From NCBI GenBank assembly GCA_963665235.2, contig CAXXLX010000002.1, forward strand, positions 288,001 through 352,000: DNA of 64,000 nt, given 5' to 3'. Source of the stretch: Candidatus Poribacteria bacterium (GTDB lineage: Bacteria; Poribacteria; WGA-4E; WGA-3G). Below, one piece after another: positions 1,495-57,668 of this stretch. The notes under the pieces were generated by a model, which ran no database searches, had not been told where the DNA came from, and saw only the letters and a list, made by a program, of their open reading frames with translations. Numbering within the stretch: position 1 is the first letter of the stretch; every line of letters starts with the position of its first letter. The position numbers and the translations under genes were made by a program.

Positions 1495-2937
1495 TTAGAG
1501 CGACATTAAAAACGCAATAAGCGCGTCGCGTTCTGTTTTTGACATCTGTAAGGTTGCTTGGCGTGATGCTTCCGCTTCGCCGCCGTGCCAGAGAATTGCT
1601 TCCATCAGGTTGCGTGCTCTGCCATCGTGAAGGAAGTTGGTATGCCCATTTACTGTTTCCACTAAGCCGATACCCCACAAGGGGGGTGTCCGCCATTCTG
1701 TACCGGTTGCATGAAAATCGGGACGGTTATCTGCTAAACCGGGCCCCATGTCGTGCAACAATAGGTCTGTATATGGATGAATTGTCTGATTGCTGACTGA
1801 GGGTACACCGATTAGAACCCCGGTTCTTAATGTCGGAATATGACAGGTTGCACATTGTGCTTGTGCAAAAAGCTGTTCGCCGTGGTTGACCTGTGGGTCG
1901 TTATGCCTTCGGCGCGCAGGCACGGCTAACGTTTGCACATAGAACGTTACGACGTCTAAAATATCGTCGCTGACTTCCGGTGTTGTGCTATGTTGAGTGT
2001 GCTGCGGTTGTCCCGCAGAATTTTCAGTGAGGAAGAGCGAAGTGGTTATCCCCATATCATCATGATAGGCGGAGGCAACCTGCTGTAGTAGCGTGGGCTG
2101 GTTCGCTTTCCATCCGAACCGGCCAAGGACATACTGTTTTCTGACCACATCCCACACAAAATTGGGTTTCCCCGAAATACCATCGCCGTTCACATCCATT
2201 TCATCGGCATAAGCGAGGATGGTTTTTTCAGGAATTGCCTCTAATAAGCCGAGCCCAAAGACAACGGGTGCCACACGTGGCGATACCTCCACATTCTTTG
2301 GCAGCGGTTGATATGTTTCGGTGAGGGTGTAGTTTGGATAACGCAGGTGTACACGGGTGCCATCCGATGCTGTCAAGGTCTGCTCGGTATAGTCAATTTT
2401 GACTGTTCCCTCTGGACTTTTTCCGTAGATAGCCCGGTTATTCAGTTGTGTGCCGAAGCCCGGGACTGGGGTTGGCGGTTGTGCGGTTTGCCCTCCGTTA
2501 GGCTGCTGCGATTCGGTATCAGCCCCTTCTTCCGCAGTCGGTTTGGGTAGGCTGAGTCTGAAGAGGAGCGATGTGAGTTTCTCGTTAGGGCCCGGTGGCC
2601 GTCCTCGACCATCGCGGGTGTGACAGTTGATACACGAAATATTGTTGTAGATGGGCCCGAGACCGGGATTGACTACGGCGGGGGCAGTGACAAAAACGGC
2701 TTCAAATTCTACATCCCCCTCGAGATGCTTTTCAAGTGCTGCCGCGGATAGATTGGGGGCGGGGGTTGAGAACGCATGGCTTGACGCATCAAATACAGTG
2801 GTCTCGCCGCCAGAAAGGGCACTCGTGGAAGATATGGGCATCGATTCTCCGTCTACTGGTGACTTCGAATCACATGCGATTAGGAGAATGGATACGAGAA
2901 ACGTTAGCAGATAAGGTAAACTACGAAAATGTTTCAT
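1495..2937 (-). CDS. di-haem oxidoreductase family (DHOR/thiol oxidoreductase) lipoprotein
   Basis: Two CxxCH (CINCH, CATCH), GLGLLEAI, GRFGWKA, YTDLLLHDMG, WRTPPLWG, FLHDGRAR; lipobox LIAC. Confidence 0.9.
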   Translation of the reverse strand: MKHFRSLPYLLTFLVSILLIACDSKSPVDGESMPISSTSALSGGETTVFDASSHAFSTPAPNLSAAALEKHLEGDVEFEAVFVTAPAVVNPGLGPIYNNISCINCHTRDGRGRPPGPNEKLTSLLFRLSLPKPTAEEGADTESQQPNGGQTAQPPTPVPGFGTQLNNRAIYGKSPEGTVKIDYTEQTLTASDGTRVHLRYPNYTLTETYQPLPKNVEVSPRVAPVVFGLGLLEAIPEKTILAYADEMDVNGDGISGKPNFVWDVVRKQYVLGRFGWKANQPTLLQQVASAYHDDMGITTSLFLTENSAGQPQHTQHSTTPEVSDDILDVVTFYVQTLAVPARRRHNDPQVNHGEQLFAQAQCATCHIPTLRTGVLIGVPSVSNQTIHPYTDLLLHDMGPGLADNRPDFHATGTEWRTPPLWGIGLVETVNGHTNFLHDGRARNLMEAILWHGGEAEASRQATLQMSKTERDALIAFLMSL

Positions 2938-49368: not shown

Positions 49369-50208
49369 ATGCAGAACGTTTTTTTGAATGGAACAGCGAT
49401 TGAAATTCATCGCGATATTCAGCGTGGAAATATTCGTCACGCCGTTTTCGATTTTGATGGCACTATCTCTCTCATCCGAGATGGATGGCAGAACGTTATG
49501 GTACCGATGATGGTTGAATGCCTGCAAACCGAAACGGATACCACCGAAACTCGTGAACAATTAGAGACGCTCGTCGTTGAATTTGTGGATAGACTGACAG
49601 GTAAGCAGACTATCTATCAGATGATTCAGTTAGGCGAAGAGGTTGAGAAACGTGGGGGTACCCCGAAACCGCCGCTGGCGTACAAAGATGAATACAACCG
49701 CCGTTTGCTTCCCGTCGTTGAGCAACGGATTGCTGACCTTGCGGCGGGGACGTTACCTGCGGAAACGCTTCGTGTCCCGATGTCCCTTGAGTTTCTCCAA
49801 AGCCTGCGTGCTTTGGGTGTTCGCTGCTATCTTGCTAGCGGCACCGATGTTGAGTTTGTCAAAAATGAGGCGAAACTGCTTGGGGTGGCGGAGCACTTCG
49901 ATGGCGGTATCTTCGGGGCATTACGGGACTATAAGCGGTTTTCTAAAGCGATGGTTATCCAGAAAATTCTCACCGATTTCAATCTCAGCGGCAGTGAACT
50001 GCTAATCATTGGGGATGGCTATGTGGAGATAGAGAACGCCAAAGCGGTAGGGGCAATTGCTGTCGGGGTTGCCTCTGTAGAGGATAACGTTTACAATATG
50101 AACGTGGATAAACGTGAACGTCTGATACGTGCCGGGGCGGATATCATCATCCCCGATTTTCAGGAGGGAGCAAAACTTCTCGCCTATCTATTTGACGCGG
50201 AAGGTTGA
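49369..50208 (+). CDS. HAD-superfamily hydrolase
   Basis: FDFDGT, LASGT, IGDG. Confidence 0.88.
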   Translation: MQNVFLNGTAIEIHRDIQRGNIRHAVFDFDGTISLIRDGWQNVMVPMMVECLQTETDTTETREQLETLVVEFVDRLTGKQTIYQMIQLGEEVEKRGGTPKPPLAYKDEYNRRLLPVVEQRIADLAAGTLPAETLRVPMSLEFLQSLRALGVRCYLASGTDVEFVKNEAKLLGVAEHFDGGIFGALRDYKRFSKAMVIQKILTDFNLSGSELLIIGDGYVEIENAKAVGAIAVGVASVEDNVYNMNVDKRERLIRAGADIIIPDFQEGAKLLAYLFDAEG

Positions 50209-50565
50209 ATTGACAAGGGCATTAGTCATAAACACGGTGCCAAATCACAGCTTAAGAACGGGCAATAAATGGTTTCCCTACTACCAGCCATTAGTTCTAT
50301 GCACGGTGCCAAATCATGCCTACGGTGGGTAGCAGGTTTCCAACTACTCGTTTGCGGGTGCAAGCGTATAAAATTTAACTGTGCCGAGTCGCCCTTTTCC
50401 CTGCACTGTTTTTTGCAGAATTCGCACAGCATCTGTATAGGCAGCTAACTGAATCTCAATCGGAAAATCGATGCGCCTCTTAATACTTTTGATTTTCTTC
50501 CAGCCAAACTCGCTATCCCGCACGTGATAGACCCCCAGCTAAAGCATGGGGGCTTCCGTCCTATG

Positions 50566-51777
50566 TTAGACGAAAGCATTTGTGGAATTCAGAAGCCGAC
50601 TGGTGGCTTCAACGGCAATGCCTACAATTTTGTTGAACAAAACAATAGGTCTTACAATACCTAACCCAAAGGAGGCTACCCCCTCCTTAAGAATATTGAT
50701 AGCAGCGTTGTGGTCTCTGTCAAGATGCGTATGGCAACTTGGACAGGTCCATTCTCTCTCTGCTAATGTGATTGTTTCGTTTTTATGTCCGCAAACAGAA
50801 CAAGATTTTGTTGTGGGGGTCCAGCGGTCAATCTTCAGAACGCTTTTAATACGCTTACTGGATTGATGTTTTAGTTTCTGCATGAACTCGCCAAAAGCAA
50901 GGTCAGAAATCTGTTTACCCCAGAGTGCTTTCATGCCATTAAGGTTTAGGGCTTCAAAGAACAGAATATCCGACTGTCTACAAAGTTCTATCGCTAACTT
51001 CCAATGGTGGTCTGACCTTTGATGCGCAGTTCTTTTATGGATACGTGCAACTTGCTGCCGACTTCGGGCTTGATTATTAGAACCTGGAACCTTGCGTGAA
51101 AACGCCCTTTGTGCCTTGGCTAAGTCTTTCGCGTTCTGTTGGTAGAACATAGGAGAACTATATCGTTTTGCGTCACTGCCAGTCAGGAAGTCTTTGATAC
51201 CCATATCAAACCCTTCAGCTTTACCTGTCTTGGGTTCGGGTATGACTTCGCTATAGTCTTCAGTGAGTGTGATATATATGTCTCCGAGGGCATCACGAGT
51301 GACATGAACTTCTTTGATGGCACCTTGTATCTCGCGATGCAAAGCAAAACGATACCAGTGTCCGTTTAGGCGAATTTTATAGGTAGGATGATTTCTTTCT
51401 TGCTTTTGTGGGGCAAGCAACTTTTCTATTTTCACCTGTTCACCGCGAAACGTCATGCCTTTGTGTTTTTGACATTTCTTGAATTGCGGGTGTCCGCGTT
51501 TGTGCGTCCGCATCTCTCTAAACGATTGAGCAAGGCGTTTCACTACATTTTGTAACGCCCAGGAATACGGAATATTCCAATGGGCATACTTCTTCAGTTG
51601 CTTCAGTTTTGTCAGGTGTGCTGACATCTGTGAATACGACAAACCTTTACCATATCGACGGTAATATCGCATAGACAAGGCGATGAAGTGATTTCGCACA
51701 ACACCACAGATATTAAGCTCGTTATGTAGACGCTTTAAGGTCTTATCGTGAAAGAGTTTGTGTTTTGTATTTCGCAC
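50566..51777 (-). CDS. tnpB: RNA-guided endonuclease TnpB
   Basis: RuvC D (GFDMG), E (FFEAL), D (DRDHNAA); Zn finger CSVC...CPSC. Confidence 0.95.
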   Translation of the reverse strand: MRNTKHKLFHDKTLKRLHNELNICGVVRNHFIALSMRYYRRYGKGLSYSQMSAHLTKLKQLKKYAHWNIPYSWALQNVVKRLAQSFREMRTHKRGHPQFKKCQKHKGMTFRGEQVKIEKLLAPQKQERNHPTYKIRLNGHWYRFALHREIQGAIKEVHVTRDALGDIYITLTEDYSEVIPEPKTGKAEGFDMGIKDFLTGSDAKRYSSPMFYQQNAKDLAKAQRAFSRKVPGSNNQARSRQQVARIHKRTAHQRSDHHWKLAIELCRQSDILFFEALNLNGMKALWGKQISDLAFGEFMQKLKHQSSKRIKSVLKIDRWTPTTKSCSVCGHKNETITLAEREWTCPSCHTHLDRDHNAAINILKEGVASFGLGIVRPIVLFNKIVGIAVEATSRLLNSTNAFV

Positions 51778-52190
51778 TATACACCTTTTTCATCTTCTAC
51801 ATACTGCTGTAAAACATCTAGGGTTACACCGCCTGTAGAGGCTACAAAATAGGAACGTGTCCACAAGTTCGGAAGTCTTGATTTTAAGTGTGGGAACTCC
51901 TCGCGTAACACTTTTGCCGTCATTCCTTTTATCCTGCCGATCAGGATACCAACAGCTTCGGTGGGAGGAATGCTAATCAACAAATGCACGGGGTCTGCAA
52001 GGGTTTCCACTGCACGGACAACGTAACCGTATTTATCTTGAGATTCTAATACAAGTTCTTTAAACCGAGTTTGGATTTCAGTAGACAAAACCGGGCGTCT
52101 GTATTTTGTACACCAAATGATATGATACTCACAGGCGTATGTAGAGGACCGTGTCTTTTGATATACTAACTCCGGCGTTTCTAATTTCAT
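51777..52190 (-). CDS. tnpA: Y1 transposase TnpA (HUH motif mutated)
   Basis: YHIIWCTKYRR, DPVHLL, LWTRSYF, QYVED. Confidence 0.93.
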   Translation of the reverse strand: MKLETPELVYQKTRSSTYACEYHIIWCTKYRRPVLSTEIQTRFKELVLESQDKYGYVVRAVETLADPVHLLISIPPTEAVGILIGRIKGMTAKVLREEFPHLKSRLPNLWTRSYFVASTGGVTLDVLQQYVEDEKGV

Positions 52191-52614
52191 TCTAAAAAAC
52201 CTTATTGTGTTAGATTATATATATATTATACCACATTGTTATTAGAATGTCAACTCTTTTTTTTACAAAAACGCTGTTAGCGGTGTCTACATCCCCCAGC
52301 TAAAGCTTGGGGGTTTTGACACCGAAGACACTGATAAATATCTATGTTGTGAACGACACCTTCGCCGGTGATAACAATTTTTCGGATGTCACTTTTAAAT
52401 GGTATGGAAAAAACGACGCCGGACCAGACATACTTTTCGTTAACAACCGCCTCAACCGGGATGTACTTCTGTTCTGTGAAGAGTGTTGCACACCCGATAA
52501 AGAGCACACATAGCAATAGAATCAGATAGAATTTAGACATCTCTGAGCTTCGTCTGAGAATGAGAATTCGTTATTTGTAGGTTGGGTTGAACAGATGCTG
52601 TGTATTAGGAAAAA

Positions 52615-52688
52615 TGGGCGGTACAGGACTTGAACCTGTGACCTCTTGCATGTCAAGCAAACGCTCTAGCCACCTGAGCTAACCACCC
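52615..52688 (-). tRNA. tRNA-Val(GAC)
   Basis: GGGTGGTTAGCTCAG...TTGACAT...GGTTCAAGTCC; CCA not encoded. Confidence 0.95.
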
Positions 52689-52702
52689 ACATATAGAGGT
52701 AA

Positions 52703-52777
52703 TGGAGGTGGCGGTCGGAATCGAACCGACGAATAAGAGTTTTGCAGACTCTGGCCTTACCACTTGGCTACGCCACC
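52703..52777 (-). tRNA. tRNA-Cys(GCA)
   Basis: GGTGGCGTAGCCAAGTGG...CTGCAAA...GTTCGATTCC...CCA. Confidence 0.95.
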
Positions 52778-52781
52778 GGAA

Positions 52782-52856
52782 TGGAGCGGGAGACGAGATT
52801 TGAACTCGCGACCTCCACCTTGGCAAGGTGGAGCTCTACCACTGAGCTACTCCCGC
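52782..52856 (-). tRNA. tRNA-Gly(GCC)
   Basis: GCGGGAGTAGCTCAG...TTGCCAA...GTTCAAATC...CCA. Confidence 0.95.
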
Positions 52857-53011
52857 AATTTGTAGATGTGAATTTTTACACATCTGATAGTGTATATAGT
52901 TTAACATGCTTTAATGAAAATGTCAAGTTAATTTTGATTAAAAACAGAAAAATTCCGAAATTTTGTCAAAAAACTTCGAAATTTTTCAGGATTTTCGCTA
53001 TGTGAATGCTA

Positions 53012-54217
53012 TCAGGTGCGGTAGTCCGCATTGATTCGGATGTAATCGTACGAATAATCGCAGGTCCACATAGTTATTTCAGCGTTGCCTGCTTGGAGGT
53101 CAATGGTAATTCTGACAGGGTCATTGGCGAACAATTTGGTCGCTTTCGCCTCGTCATATCCAGCATCCATGCCGTTTTTAACGAGCAGATAGTCGCCGAG
53201 GAGCACGTCGACCTGATACGGGTCGAACGTTGCCCCGGATTTTCCGATTGCCATCATGATCCGTCCCCAGTTGGCATCGTTGGCGAAAACGGCTGTTTTG
53301 ACGAGTGGGGATTCGGCAACTGCCCGGGCGGCTTTTTCGGCATCGTCCCGATTTTTTGCGCGTTTAACGACAACTTCAACCAATTTCGTCGCGCCTTCGC
53401 CATCACGAGCAAGCATCTTGACCAATTCGGTGCAGACAGACTGCAACCCTTCACAAAACGCCTCGTAATTCGTCCCCTCCGGTTGAATAATGTCAGAGTT
53501 GCCTGCCCTGCCCGTTGCAAGAATCAATACCGTGTCATTTGTACTCCGGTCGGTATCGACGGTCAGTAGGTTATAGGTGTTATCTGTGACGTGGGTTAAG
53601 GCGGCTTGAAGTGCTTCGCTTCCGATGCATGCGTCAGTTGTCAGGTAGGAGAGCATTGTGGCCATATTGGGTGCTATCATCCCTGACCCCTTGGCAATTC
53701 CTCCGATTTTGATAGGGGTGCCGGCAATTGTCGTTTCAATCGCGAACGCTTTCGGGTGCGTGTCAGTTGTCATAATAGCTTCGGCGGCATCGCTTCCGCC
53801 TTCCACGCTAAGCGCGTTTGCTGCCAATTGAATGCCGTTCTCAATTTTATCCATCGGCAATTGTTGACCGATAACGCCTGTTGAGGAGACAAGAACGTGC
53901 TTTTCAGCGATGCCGAGTTGTGCTGCTGTTAACGATGCCATCCGTTGGGCGTTCGCCATGCCAGCCTCACCGGTACAAGCGTTGGCATTCCCACTGTTGA
54001 CAACAACGGCTTGTGCTGTCGCCTCGCTGAGGTGCTGACGACATACCAAAACTGGGGCAGCTGTGACGCTGTTTTTTGTGAAGACACCTGCAGCGACCGC
54101 TGGGGTATCGGTGACGATTAAGGCTAGGTCTTTTAGTTCTGATTTTTTGATACCGGCATGGATGCCTGCTGCTCGGACCCCCGGCACTGCGGTAATTCCA
54201 CCATCTATCTGTTTCAT
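53012..54217 (-). CDS. argJ: bifunctional ornithine acetyltransferase / N-acetylglutamate synthase
   Basis: NSGNANACTG, SSTGVIG, IMTTDT, KGSGMIAPNMATML, DGEGATK, NADYRT. Confidence 0.97.
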   Translation of the reverse strand: MKQIDGGITAVPGVRAAGIHAGIKKSELKDLALIVTDTPAVAAGVFTKNSVTAAPVLVCRQHLSEATAQAVVVNSGNANACTGEAGMANAQRMASLTAAQLGIAEKHVLVSSTGVIGQQLPMDKIENGIQLAANALSVEGGSDAAEAIMTTDTHPKAFAIETTIAGTPIKIGGIAKGSGMIAPNMATMLSYLTTDACIGSEALQAALTHVTDNTYNLLTVDTDRSTNDTVLILATGRAGNSDIIQPEGTNYEAFCEGLQSVCTELVKMLARDGEGATKLVEVVVKRAKNRDDAEKAARAVAESPLVKTAVFANDANWGRIMMAIGKSGATFDPYQVDVLLGDYLLVKNGMDAGYDEAKATKLFANDPVRITIDLQAGNAEITMWTCDYSYDYIRINADYRT

Positions 54218-54247
54218 CAAGTTCTTCGGATTGGAAACCCCCAGCAT

Positions 54248-55300
54248 TTATGCGGGGGAGGAAAATCCGCCTTTATAGTTGAAGTTCAAGCGTGTTAGCA
54301 CTTGAAAATCTGCGCGTTTTGCACCCGTTGTGAGGCGTTCACCTTCTAAGCTATAGATAGAAAACAACCCCTTTGCATTAATACCCGTAATAGGATGTCC
54401 TCGGTGGGACCTCGGACGTGTGATACCATGCTTACCATGTTTGATCAGTGTGTTTTTGATAAGTCTATCACTTAACACAGTCCCCCCATAGCGGGGTCTC
54501 TTTCCCCCGGTTTGTGGGTTCTGCCGATGCAGTTCCCGCCTGCGTATGGGTATCGGTGAAATGCAGAATATGTCTGTATTGTCCACGGTTTCCGCATCAC
54601 CCCCCACGGTATGGTAGGCTAAGCACCACGCGTCAACGCAATGTGCCTCAAAAGTCTCTGCCAACTTTTGAGATGACTTTTTCAAACCGAGCCTGTCGCG
54701 CAGCTGTTTTGTCTGCCACCCTTGAAGGGTTAGCAGTTCCCACCGCTTTTCTATTTCGCCATAAAACCAGGTCTTGCCCACCTCAAGCGGACTAAAAGAT
54801 GTGTTCCATTTCTTAGCACGTTCAATAGTCCGTGCTTTGATGTCCTCAACACAGACGTGTGTAACAGGATAGAGTTTAGACAACCAATCTAATATCCGAA
54901 GTTTCCAATCCCAACGGGCACGGGTGCCTGCCGGGAGACGGTCTTTCTTCGCTACTCGATTTGTTCGATGCTTCCGGTTTGGACACTTCCGGGTTCTACG
55001 ACCCCGTCTCAAGATACGTCTTCTTTTAACTTTTTTTCCAACCTTGTTATGTGCATCCGCTTGCACATTCAGATATGTGTGTGCCTCAGACTTCACCGTG
55101 AAGCCTTCTTTCTTGGAACCAGGGTCCACGCCCACACAGATTTCCTGTGTGTGTTCTTTTGTCTCGTAGTTTAGCCGAATACAAAAGATACCGTTACGCC
55201 AATATGGCGTTGCCAATTCTTTTTTGATTAGCACGCCCGCTTTGTTAGAATCTGTCGGCATTAATGGATTGCCAGACTTGCTTTGAACCGGAACAAACAT
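54248..55300 (-). CDS. isrB: IsrB RNA-guided nickase (PLMP/RRXRR, split RuvC, no HNH)
   Basis: PLMPT, GVDPGSK, RRRILRRGRR bridge helix, VEDIK, HCVDA; 350 aa with no HNH. Confidence 0.88.
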   Translation of the reverse strand: MFVPVQSKSGNPLMPTDSNKAGVLIKKELATPYWRNGIFCIRLNYETKEHTQEICVGVDPGSKKEGFTVKSEAHTYLNVQADAHNKVGKKVKRRRILRRGRRTRKCPNRKHRTNRVAKKDRLPAGTRARWDWKLRILDWLSKLYPVTHVCVEDIKARTIERAKKWNTSFSPLEVGKTWFYGEIEKRWELLTLQGWQTKQLRDRLGLKKSSQKLAETFEAHCVDAWCLAYHTVGGDAETVDNTDIFCISPIPIRRRELHRQNPQTGGKRPRYGGTVLSDRLIKNTLIKHGKHGITRPRSHRGHPITGINAKGLFSIYSLEGERLTTGAKRADFQVLTRLNFNYKGGFSSPA

Positions 55301-55511
55301 AGTTTGTAATCTCCCTTTCGGGTTGTATATTTCCCCATCCAGATCAGGTATTCAGAGAGGGGTCGGACTTGGGGAGCATCCGAGACATCTTATGAGCTGC
55401 CACGCTCAGAATACCCGATATATTACTGTAGTGAAGAACTTAATCCTTGACAGGGAACGTGTGTGGCTACGCTTTGTCAAAGCACCCAAGCTTTAGCTGG
55501 GTGATCTTTAC
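55301..55511 (-). ncRNA. omega-RNA (HEARO-like) scaffold
   Basis: ~210-nt non-coding segment upstream of isrB with terminal hairpin and GGATGCTCCCCAAGTCC motif. Confidence 0.75.
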
Positions 55512-55542
55512 AAAAAAACGCTCCTGAGTATGTAGTGTTCCC

Positions 55543-55571
55543 ATTTTAGGATATTTCGATGAAATCGTCAA
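55543..55571 (-). promoter_or_regulatory. putative argJ promoter
   Basis: TTGACG-17 nt-TAAAAT; AGGAG SD at 55521-55525. Confidence 0.65.
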
Positions 55572-55991
55572 GTTTTTTATTAATACTGAACTTTGGACAA
55601 TTTTAGGGGGCATCCAGTCAAAGGGCAAAGAGATAGGGAAGGATGGAAGGGGGGAAGATTAGATTTCGCGTGTGTTGTCTGAATCACGGAGGACACAGAG
55701 GACACAGAAAACGCGGAAAGAAGTTTGGCTAAAATCTATAAACATACCGCCCCGCTGGGGCTAGCTTGTCTGGTGTTCGCGTTTTCTATTTTCCTGTCAA
55801 CCGATCAAAACTTTTAGAGCTACCAAGTTGAACAAGAAATGAGACCTACACAATAAATGCTTCTATTACAACTACGATGGGTGATGAATTGCCCTACTAC
55901 AAACGACGGGCGAGGGGCTCTCGCCTCTACGAACGATGGACGATGAATTGCCCTTAGAGGAGCGGGCTGCTTGCCCGAATACTGAACGACC

Positions 55992-57668
55992 TCACTTTAT
56001 TACGCCGTGCCCCTCTTTAATGTGCAGAATTTGATTTGCCTTCACATCGAAAAATTGCTCAGTGTGTCCACTCGGCCAGTGGAGCTCTAGCATATCAACC
56101 TGTTTGTGCTGCCCAAGTCCGAAGTGAGCGCGCAGGTCGTTTTGGGAGAGATAGCTTGACCCACTATGCACCTCTCTGATAAGCGTGTGTGCGCCTATTT
56201 TTAAGATTATTTTTGTGCCGATACCGGAGGCGTTGCTTTGTGTACCGATAGTCCGAATTGTTAGATAGTTGTTGCTGTTTCCCCCATCGTTTCGGAGTAG
56301 CATTGCGGTTTGATTGGAATGGTTGAGAAAAATATCGATATCGCCGTCGTTATCGTAGTCGCCGAAGGCTGCGCCGCGGCTGACCTTTTTGGGTAGCCGC
56401 GTTAATCCAACTTCAGCAGACACATCTGTGAAACGATGTCCCTTACCTTGGGAATTGTTTTGGAAAAGGAGGTCGAGTTGGGGGTAGGTGGCATCGGAGA
56501 AGTCTGCGATATTGTCCTGAAGATGCCCGTTAGCGAGGAAGATATCGAGTCGGCTATCGTTGTTGTAATCTAGAAAATCGACTGCCCACTTAAAATAGGG
56601 AAGTGTTGTTGCGCCAATCCCTGAAGCGAAAGAAACCTCTGAAAAAAATAGTGTTTCTTCATTGTGATAAAGGAGTACAGGTTGCGCGGGAGCATTACTG
56701 ACGATTAGGTCGAGGTATCCATCGTTATCGTAATCGCCGAAAGCACTACCCATGCCGCTGCCGGGCATGCCATTTTCATCGTAGCCTGTGCCGTTGAGGT
56801 CAGCGATTTCAGTGAATGTGCCATCGCCATTGTTTTGATAAAATAGGTCAGGTTCCATATCGTTGGCAATGTGAAGGTCAGGGTCGTTGTCATTATCGTA
56901 ATCGCCGACTGCCACGGCGAGTCCGAGGCCACGGTGTGAAATTCCAGCGGCTTCGGTGACATCGGTGAACGTCCCATCTCCGTTATTGCGATAGAGGATA
57001 TCCGCTTCACTGACAAAGCGGGTGCGTTCCATTTGGTCTACAGGACTGCAATAGATTCGTACCCCCCGTGTTTCCCACCCTTGATTGTCTGGAACGGAAA
57101 ATTGCATATAGTTGACGACGTATAGGTCGACGTGTCCATCCAAATTGTAATCCAGGAAGGCGCATCCTGTTCCCCAACGTTCGTCTCCGACGCCTGCTTT
57201 CTCTGTGATGTCGGTAAAAGTGCCATCGCCATTGTTATGATAGAGTCGATTGGGGGTTCCGTAGTTTGTCACATAAATTTCAGGGTATCCATCATTGTTG
57301 ATATCGGCTGCGGCGCATCCGACCCCGTATCCTGTATCGCCAACGCCTGCCTTGTGTGTAATGTCGGTAAAAGTGCCGTCTCCGTTGTTGTGATAGAGGC
57401 TGTTTTGTGCGGAGGGGATGTTTGCTGGAATTGCGGGGGCGATGTGTGTACCGTTCACAATATAAAGGTCAAGGTTTCCATCGGCATTGTAGTCAAAAAA
57501 GAGTGCCCCGGAGCCGAGGGTTTCAATGAGAAATTTTTGACCTGTTCTGCCATCCACATGCCGAAAAGCGATGCCTGCTGTGGCGGTTGCATCGATGAAG
57601 TGAACCTCTGTATAAGCAGGCCGACTGACGAGACTCAAACAGAGCAGAATTTGACAGATACATCTCAT
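55992..57668 (-). CDS. CRTAC1-like FG-GAP / ASPIC-UnbV protein
   Basis: DYDNDG repeats, GSSYLSQ; start MRCIC overlaps the upstream stop. Confidence 0.9.
   Translation of the reverse strand: MRCICQILLCLSLVSRPAYTEVHFIDATATAGIAFRHVDGRTGQKFLIETLGSGALFFDYNADGNLDLYIVNGTHIAPAIPANIPSAQNSLYHNNGDGTFTDITHKAGVGDTGYGVGCAAADINNDGYPEIYVTNYGTPNRLYHNNGDGTFTDITEKAGVGDERWGTGCAFLDYNLDGHVDLYVVNYMQFSVPDNQGWETRGVRIYCSPVDQMERTRFVSEADILYRNNGDGTFTDVTEAAGISHRGLGLAVAVGDYDNDNDPDLHIANDMEPDLFYQNNGDGTFTEIADLNGTGYDENGMPGSGMGSAFGDYDNDGYLDLIVSNAPAQPVLLYHNEETLFFSEVSFASGIGATTLPYFKWAVDFLDYNNDSRLDIFLANGHLQDNIADFSDATYPQLDLLFQNNSQGKGHRFTDVSAEVGLTRLPKKVSRGAAFGDYDNDGDIDIFLNHSNQTAMLLRNDGGNSNNYLTIRTIGTQSNASGIGTKIILKIGAHTLIREVHSGSSYLSQNDLRAHFGLGQHKQVDMLELHWPSGHTEQFFDVKANQILHIKEGHGVIK

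Follow-up and report, generated by a model that had tools for sequence, protein, structure and literature searches.

In a Candidatus Poribacteria genome, a mobile element carrying an isrB gene was found to separate the start codon of argJ from its ribosome-binding site, and its relatives lie at start codons more often than is expected from ATGA sites at large. The analysed stretch, referred to below as the window, comprises 64,000 nt of contig CAXXLX010000002.1 (assembly GCA_963665235.2), and all coordinates give the position in this stretch. The insert of 1294 nt (54218..55511, minus strand) was confirmed to be a non-autonomous IS200/IS605 element with an intact IsrB gene. It separates the Shine-Dalgarno (SD) sequence and the spacer of argJ from the ATG, and the ATGA on its 3' side, which is the insertion target and presumed target-adjacent motif (TAM), consists of the argJ start codon and the next base. 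The explanation that in our opinion best combines the data, with a probability of about 0.6, is that a transposase supplied in trans placed the element, that its guide RNA would be taken from the host leader, that copies at start codons tend to be retained, and that the host gene would still be translated.

The element at the start codon of argJ

All features of the locus lie on the minus strand. The argJ promoter, TTGACG-17-TAAAAT (55543..55571), scored 10/12 and was the best among five promoter-like matches; it stands at the position equivalent to that of the TTGACA-17-TATAAT-like promoter of most related argJ loci. From the end of its -10 box 31 nt remain to the element, giving a leader of about 24 nt. 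The host 5' untranslated region (5'UTR, 55512..55536), which by analogy with known systems is predicted to supply the 5' guide of the omega-RNA, contains the SD sequence AGGAG (55525-55521) and a 9-nt spacer, the flank reading AGGAG, then CG and seven T, and ending at 55512. The element itself (ISC1/IsrB-type) begins with the omega-RNA-side terminus GTAAAGAT and an imperfect hairpin with a TAAA loop (together 55483..55511), in which all four pairs of helix 1 covary. This terminus is part of an omega-RNA scaffold of about 210 nt (55301..55511), recognized by covariation in a 40-sequence alignment, whose last helix precedes the isrB SD sequence GGGAG (55315-55311). The isrB gene (54248..55300) is intact and encodes 350 amino acids; its stop codon TAA (54250-54248) is held in the loop of the right-end imperfect hairpin (54238..54258). 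A 20-nt terminal segment with a conserved CCGAAGA (54218..54237) completes the element, and in cyanobacterial relatives GGAG, GGAGG or GAGG is found in this segment. Next comes the ATGA (54214..54217), and the right flank, ATGAAACAG from 54217 on, encodes the residues MKQ of ArgJ. The argJ gene (53012..54217) codes for 401 amino acids from this MKQ, matches the full Pfam ArgJ profile (2.1e-154) and is the sole ArgJ match of the genome.

Boundaries and the empty allele

The boundaries were defined by other copies, by empty alleles and by a joint found in public DNA. In BLAST comparisons the other copies in the same genome aligned from exactly 55511 and stopped 4-9 nt past 54218; the part shared between them was the element and the ATGA(A..) motif only. 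The empty allele is seen in 27/29 related argJ loci, where the SD sequence leads directly to the start codon, as a rule at 30-35 nt from the promoter. At one of them (L039) the site differs from the reconstructed empty site of the window in the spacer alone. ArgJ was present in 39/41 genomes searched. In each of the 39 matches, that of the own genome among them, the alignment begins at residue 1 of the MKQ form, and MKQ is therefore the native start of the protein. A contig from a public DNA run, X6, follows 54047-54217 without mismatch and then continues at 55512, skipping exactly 1294 nt (depth 21.5, with 25 nt on the short side of the joint). The site thus occurs unoccupied in nature, and the insertion is seamless with a single ATGA. 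A single ATGA is also present in the 27 empty relatives, and no target duplication was found. As a separate observation, hairpin-bearing sequences, which may be other small mobile elements, replace the -35 region of the argJ promoter in L051 and L047, where the SD|ATG junction is intact.

These findings agree with the original prediction for the locus, which had placed an IsrB element between the argJ SD sequence with its spacer and the ATG. All details listed there were found, including the 3' motif ATGA as the start codon itself, read at 54217-54214. The proposed restoration of SD sequence, spacer and start by deletion of 54218-55511 corresponds to the allele of the 27 relatives and of the X6 contig. 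The host promoter proposed upstream of the omega-RNA is present in conserved form about 24 nt before it, and no promoter-like site was detected on the minus strand inside the element.

Occupancy of start codons in the same genome and in other genomes

Within the same genome 36 right ends of the element were located, followed by ATGA in 32 cases and by ATGG, AGGA, ATAC and a degenerate sequence in one case each. A left end could be paired with 31 of them, yielding full elements of 1.26-1.41 kb, one copy of 959 nt and derivatives of 450-650 nt without isrB. For the statistics, the 30 paired, ATGA-flanked copies were used. An open reading frame (ORF) of at least 100 amino acids began at the ATG of the TAM in 19/30 of them vs 17.5% of 39,569 ATGA sites (p=3e-8). 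With a stricter definition of a start, requiring in addition no more than 20 open codons upstream, the numbers were 16/30 vs 4.4% (p=2e-14), and 14/30 vs 13% of the background had an SD core 3-13 nt upstream of the junction (p=8e-6). The upstream gene had the same orientation as the element in 27/31 cases (p=3e-5).

The search was extended to other genomes by a scan of one genome per species, in which 301 related stretches came up; the 80 best of them were taken, 78 with Poribacteria titles. The right end could be placed in 73/80, the seven in which the C-terminal motif was not found being left out. All 73 were anchored on an ATG or GTG, the right end being followed by ATGA in 66 cases, by GTGA in six and by ATGC in one, with two anchors that look misplaced. 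An ORF of at least 100 amino acids began at 32/73 right ends. Among the 67 with both ends placed, such an ORF was found in 28 (p=3e-6), a strict start in 17 (p=4e-9) and an SD core in 24 (p=2e-6), each compared with the background of the own genome. At the six loci flanked by GTGA (L089, L102, L120, L130, L135 and L140), the GTG opens an ORF of 346-550 amino acids in three, and therefore an alternative start codon also serves as TAM.

The preference for start codons was then compared with the sequence preference of the element. Insertions away from starts, in the own genome and in L062-L140, prefer A at positions -2, -1 and +5 (47-55% vs 23-35%), and the real target is therefore wider than ATGA, like AA|ATGA-A. 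A model of ATGA sites weighted for A expects 19-21% of insertions at ORFs of at least 100 amino acids and 5.6-6.7% at strict starts, and the strict word AAATGAAA expects only 26% and 14%. The pooled observations were 45/92 and 31/92 (p<=3e-6), so the enrichment survives the extended-target model.

Two observations concern the termini. The derivatives without isrB (for example C1:337902, C1:505003, C1:1154879, C1:19939 and C1:1888073) have kept the two ends together with some of the omega-RNA region, and several lie exactly at the SD|ATG junctions of ORFs of 205-453 amino acids. At five copies (C1:121574, 3813621, 533433 and 2436327; C2:178601) the ORF upstream enters the element by 8 nt and ends at the TAA of the left terminus GTCAATAA; the terminus can therefore give an interrupted frame a stop codon.

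Host genes and recurrent insertion sites

The 19 host ORFs of the own genome were analysed with Pfam. They encode a LeuC-like protein of the aconitase family (profile 1-463 matched from residue 7), the best MurJ match of the genome (335.6 bits), BatA (residues 1-76 on profile 1-77), a 5-formyltetrahydrofolate cyclo-ligase, a cyclophilin, and HD, TPR, PKD and dockerin proteins; six are without a family. The genome has three matches to the MurJ family, and the idea that the occupied MurJ gene is strictly single copy was rejected. On a complete chromosome of 6.07 Mb (L074) the order is fusA-tuf-[element]-rpsJ-rplC-rplD-rplW. Here the element adjoins the ATG of ribosomal protein S10, and rpsJ is the only S10 gene present. 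Expression downstream of the element therefore cannot be abolished, and some rescue of translation must exist.

The argJ start codon was occupied more than once. In another genus of the same family (L042) an IsrB element was found at the identical argJ junction, with another type of left end, a TGA stop 29 nt from the ATG and an IsrB protein 76% identical to that of the window. The L042-type insertion is shared by two species (L093 and L094), whose elements are 94.5% identical. The window copy is 97% identical to another copy in its own genome, and it therefore looks like a separate, recent arrival. Similarly, the gene of an ABC ATPase (259-aa proteins, 86% identical) carries elements of different subfamilies in L063 and L103. 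In a further genus (L050) an insert of about 83 nt is present at the argJ SD|ATG junction (2704-2790, minus strand); its 3' part is loosely similar to the IsrB right end (59% mean column identity), and one may guess that it is a decayed IsrB copy.

Cyanobacterial plasmids gave 14 records with a match, and seven loci were inspected. In Leptolyngbya, Stanieria and Dolichospermum the next gene is annotated as starting with the ATGA that adjoins the element end, and the ATGA of the Nostoc PCC 7120 locus lies in frame, seven codons before the annotated GTG of dpdE. In three of these four loci GGAG, GGAGG or GAGG occurs 5-8 nt before the ATG, within the terminal 19-28 nt, and in Leptolyngbya the host's own SD sequence is still seen on the left flank. 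No clear element end beside a co-directional gene was recognized at the other three loci (H6, H9 and H12).

The IsrB protein, the termini and a source of transposase

The name IsrB reportedly comes from Altae-Tran et al. in 2021. Pfam identified only RRXRR (1.6e-29) and no HNH domain in the isrB product. Its best match in the PDB was the IsrB nickase 8DMB (1.9e-36, residues 3-283), and IscB chains matched the N-terminal part only. Residues D59, E152 and D223, which we take to be catalytic, are invariant among seven IsrB copies. The left (55503-55483) and right (54258-54238) hairpins both have a TAAA loop and one bulge, and their stems covary between element subfamilies; no terminal inverted repeats were found at the element ends. 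The element belongs to IS200/IS605 by its subterminal hairpins, its fixed target without duplication and the presence in the genome of a TnpA with matching ends. It belongs to the IsrB type by a protein of about 350 amino acids with PLMP/RRXRR and a split RuvC without HNH, by the structured omega-RNA upstream and by an NTGA TAM deduced from the flanks. A guide position outside the element follows from the element boundary.

About 2 kb from the IsrB element lies an autonomous IS200/IS605 element (50522..52334, plus strand), which carries on the minus strand tnpA (51777-52190; Pfam Y1_Tnp, 2.2e-34) and tnpB (50566-51777; Pfam OrfB_IS605/TNB). Its ends (about 50522 and about 52334) match both IsrB end types in their hairpins and terminal segment, but its flank reads ATAA instead of ATGA. 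Four copies of its end were found in the genome. Judged by these similarities, it is probably the source of transposase, mobilising the IsrB elements in trans. Between this element and argJ there are three tandem tRNA genes (52615-52856, minus strand; Rfam 65-73 bits).

The omega-RNA and transcripts

For the omega-RNA, 40 non-redundant copies (similarity <93%) were aligned over the 210 nt from the left end to the isrB ATG; three were from the own genome and 37 from the 74 others with a scorable left end. RNAalifold predicted 36 pairs, and compensatory changes were present in 21 of them. Paired cells amounted to 96.1% vs 83.7% in shuffled alignments, none of 500 shuffles reaching the observed value, and slid controls had 22-45% paired.

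RNA contigs from three metatranscriptome runs of another study pile up on 55303-55485. Their summed depths on the scaffold were 1023/833/249, 320/604/182 and 247/356/90 vs 0-33 over the isrB ORF. A DNA run had 505/570/420 on the scaffold vs mostly 25-60 over the isrB ORF, with some conserved bins at 121-306. Since the depths are per contig and come from a related strain with many copies, they do no more than hint at a stable scaffold RNA. One RNA contig at another copy extends 29 nt into the flank of that copy, and at other loci contigs from the RNA libraries reach from the element end, TAM included, 145-255 nt into the host ORFs. The two argJ junctions of the window copy were not covered by RNA contigs.

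The isrB stop codon and the host start codon

In all subfamilies the isrB stop lies within the loop of the right-end hairpin. Its distance to the host ATG is 30 nt in 22/26 scorable copies of the own genome and 27-30 nt in 68/73 elsewhere. What is conserved is thus the spacing: isrB ends 27-30 nt before the host ATG, as dictated by the architecture of the transposon end. The fold of the element 3' end together with the argJ start is not special beyond the hairpin (z=-1.4). In the terminal segment CCGAAGA is kept in nearly all Poribacteria copies.

In the window the stop codon is directly adjoined by an ATG (54247-54245) in the argJ frame. The N-terminus of ArgJ could accordingly be written in two ways, as MKQIDGG... 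or, with the extension MLGVSNPKNL before MKQ, as MLGVSNPKNLMKQ...

Proposed mechanism

In the explanation favoured here, a Y1 TnpA supplied in trans would place the element immediately 5' of ATGA. The locus would then be a single transcription unit leading from the argJ promoter through the argJ 5'UTR, which would act as guide, and the omega-RNA scaffold to isrB and argJ. By analogy with published work on IscB and IsrB, the IsrB-omega-RNA complex could recognise the empty allele by its UTR and ATGA TAM and nick it there, and repair would re-copy the element. The use of a borrowed host promoter and 5'UTR would be in line with what is published on IscB. The excess at start codons probably results mainly from the A-rich extended target AA|ATGA-A, from better persistence of copies with a host-transcribed guide, and from tolerance of this position, the downstream gene still being translated. 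As for translation, re-initiation across about 30 nt without an SD sequence is workable, and the most likely route is that ribosomes ending at the isrB stop, in the hairpin loop 27-30 nt before the ATG, would start again at the host ATG. They may be assisted by a weak ribosome-binding motif within the last 20 nt of the element, and in the window subfamily only, the ATG beside the stop could give ArgJ a 10-residue extension. A more far-reaching version would regard IsrB elements with an ATGA TAM as "start-codon squatters", with the start codon as TAM, the host ribosome-binding region as guide, a life as additional first cistron of host transcription units, ribosomal-protein operons among them, and an end evolved to hand ribosomes over to the host gene by its stop codon in the hairpin loop, its fixed distance of 27-30 nt and its terminal segment, which resembles a ribosome-binding site and reads GGAG, GGAGG or GAGG in three cyanobacterial relatives; this we put forward tentatively, and doubt it more than we favour it.

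Alternative explanations

The bias could also be due to survivorship only, with TnpA inserting at any (A-rich) ATGA, copies within genes being purged, and neither guide nor rescue being an adaptation. We consider this unlikely, although a null model of tolerated sites leaves considerable room for it. If survivors are found only at intergenic (5176) and start-like (1740) ATGA sites, starts should hold 25% of the copies. The 16/30 of the own genome lie above this value (p=0.001), the pooled 31/92 only weakly so (p=0.07), and much of the bias could therefore be a matter of survivorship alone. The A preference, being common to non-start insertions, points the same way. So does an expanded young family (terminus ending GAGTG, 18 loci with 14 on a single chromosome), in which only 4/18 copies are at ORFs of at least 100 amino acids, about the background. 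The trend with age is mixed among the loci sampled, which were the best 80 of 301. Copies with a nearest-neighbour identity of at least 97% were at starts in 17/43 cases and those below in 24/46, which is not significant (p=0.29); for neighbour identities <90% the numbers were 19/28 vs 22/61 (p=0.006), at a cut chosen post hoc. However, separation from the SD sequence should harm the host gene, and yet the single-copy rpsJ, the best MurJ match, the LeuC-like gene and argJ are all occupied. Sparing of reading frames alone does not predict the 27/31 co-orientation with the upstream gene, and the strict definition undercounts true starts, argJ itself failing it with 49 open codons upstream. Active targeting would be another source of the bias, either through single-stranded ATGA exposed to TnpA at AT-rich, unstructured and heavily transcribed starts or through SD-containing guides with which IsrB would nick other SD|ATGA sites and thereby seed insertions at them. 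The youngest copies of the own genome, in pairs or triplets of 99.6-99.9% identity, agree with it, as 5/5 are at ORF starts (C1 674248, 934557, 2880686, 1198240 and 1841968), and so do the argJ and ABC ATPase start codons, each hit by different subfamilies. Targeting nevertheless appears improbable to us, given that the expanded family is near background on its one chromosome, that sister copies differ in their TAM-proximal flanks, and that orientation has no relation to local GC skew (16/35, the skew being weak). Moreover, we know of no mechanism by which a guide picks a new insertion site.

Two further alternatives concern the fate of the host gene. The original prediction had regarded the overlapping TAAATG as an evolved stop-start coupling through which ArgJ, extended by MLGVSNPKNL, is rescued, and had named the lack of the in-frame ATG in homologous elements as evidence to the contrary. 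The motif is in frame in the window copy and present in 14/26 scorable copies of this genome; the rpsJ copy has a different in-frame ATG two codons past the isrB stop, and some in-frame ATG between the stop and the host ATG occurs in 26/73 copies elsewhere. Against this, TAAATG itself was found in 1/73 copies elsewhere, a second subfamily of the own genome reads TAAAGC (15/36 right ends), and the isrB stop, in frame with the host ATG in 23/26 copies here, is so in 36/73 elsewhere and out of frame in the L042 argJ copy. The ATG is also half buried in the hairpin stem and has no SD sequence before it. TAAATG is a by-product of the hairpin stem sequence of one subfamily, and its role as a conserved rescue device, which seems highly improbable to us, had to be given up. 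Thus the placement at SD|ATG, the ATGA TAM, the host promoter and the enrichment of copies and homologues at SD|ATGA junctions, the latter in the own genome and in other Poribacteria, were borne out, and the coupling device was not; the statement that the element targets start codons holds in the sense of occupancy only. Alternatively, argJ could have been silenced by the insertion and be decaying, with arginine or ornithine obtained from the sponge or the community. RNA contigs over argJ cover only 53900-54082, at a depth of 2-3.5 and with mismatches, and because of these they are ascribed to relatives. Silencing is hard to believe for a gene which is intact, with 401 codons and a full-length Pfam match, in an arrangement that is kept in the two species sharing one insertion and that is tolerated by the essential rpsJ.

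Several results, in addition to the marginal pooled excess, the young family and the neighbour identities described above, weigh against the explanation by trans placement, host-derived guide and continued translation. A cmscan of 50000-57000 with Rfam at E<=0.1 returned the three tRNAs only, with no HEARO (RF02033) and no intron. Promoter-like sites 10-60 nt upstream of the junctions were present in 3/19 and 5/28 cases vs 210/1740 (12%) of controls, and because they are not enriched, a requirement for a short leader is unsupported. A canonical SD sequence in the terminal segment of the Poribacteria copies was considered and rejected: the 16S RNA ends CCTCCTTTCT, and AGGA, GGAG and AAGG are enriched 9-12-fold at starts, the GAAG of the CGAAGA motif just 1.6-fold. 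The RNA contigs are from another strain and other loci, with depths given per contig and with possible carry-over of DNA. Production of ArgJ from the occupied locus is a prediction.

Relation to known elements

IStrons are IS200/IS605-type elements fused to a group I intron, and they lie inside a gene transcript without killing the gene. The window element was rejected as an IStron because no intron family was found in it at E<=0.1 and the region upstream of isrB folds as omega-RNA. Unlike an IStron, it would not leave the mRNA, in which it would form an additional cistron upstream.

ISC1 elements, whose IscB1 is IsrB, for instance ISC1-1_MA of Microcystis aeruginosa, are described as non-autonomous and as encoding only a RuvC-only homologue of Cas9 (Kapitonov et al. 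2016, PMC4810608). They have a 5'-GT terminus and subterminal imperfect hairpins, insert at N|ATGA without target duplication in cyanobacteria and proteobacteria, and, like ISC2, share termini with an IS605-type element in which tnpB is opposite to the Cas9-like gene (PMC4810608). The window element resembles them in its short size, its single gene for a RuvC-only protein, its 5'-GT terminus, its hairpins, its N|ATGA site without target duplication and its termini common to a tnpB element. In that description ATGA is a plain target, whereas about half of the copies studied here have it as the start codon of the host gene. The DtIsrB nickase has a 5' guide and the TAM NTGA, with ATGA being cut, and the last hairpin of its omega-RNA holds the isrB SD sequence (Hirano et al. 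2022, PMC9581776, PDB 8DMB). The protein described here is similar in its size of about 350 amino acids, in PLMP/RRXRR and in the split RuvC without HNH, and here also the last helix stands before the isrB SD sequence. Differences are the scaffold of about 210 nt vs 284 nt including the guide, and the missing HEARO match in the Rfam scan above; RNA-guided nicking of the non-target strand by the present protein is predicted.

For IscB of Geobacillus, a preprint reports a guide outside the element, transcription from host DNA, co-orientation of elements with the upstream gene and a nuclease that targets the empty donor joint (Meers et al. 2023, 10.1101/2023.03.14.532601). The bias of 27/31 found here is alike. 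The preprint, as far as consulted, gives the orientation of IscB elements only, and not their position relative to SD sequence and start codon or the fate of the downstream gene; "start codon" appears in it once, in the definition of a figure axis. The words do not occur in the text consulted of Kapitonov et al. 2016 (PMC4810608), Hirano et al. 2022 (PMC9581776), a 2026 review of OMEGA systems (PMC13565253) and PMC9755519. No description of start-codon occupancy or of the rescue of a downstream gene by IscB or IsrB was found in the literature searched; supplements were outside its scope and a prior mention is possible.

Implications

Because their guide is at the 5' end, IscB and IsrB depend on host transcription, and the question is how they secure it without damage to the host. 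This locus and about 130 relatives suggest a concrete answer, namely that the element may sit on a start codon which is also its TAM, so that the host leader becomes the guide and the host gene is left translatable. As a model of how OMEGA elements are retained, it can be tested directly. If the wider reading, that of an end evolved to hand over ribosomes, were true, the output of the host gene would be tied to the translation of isrB and the processing of the omega-RNA; the arrangement would limit harm in parallel to the splicing of IStrons, and would offer a 5'-guide nuclease a natural way of having its guide transcribed. The terminal hairpin with its stop codon and the 20-nt hand-over segment suggest a compact natural module for inserting a cistron. 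Annotation pipelines may add spurious N-terminal extensions to genes beside such elements, or miss their starts. For the Poribacteria, symbionts of sponges, the data point to a large and active-looking population of IsrB elements.

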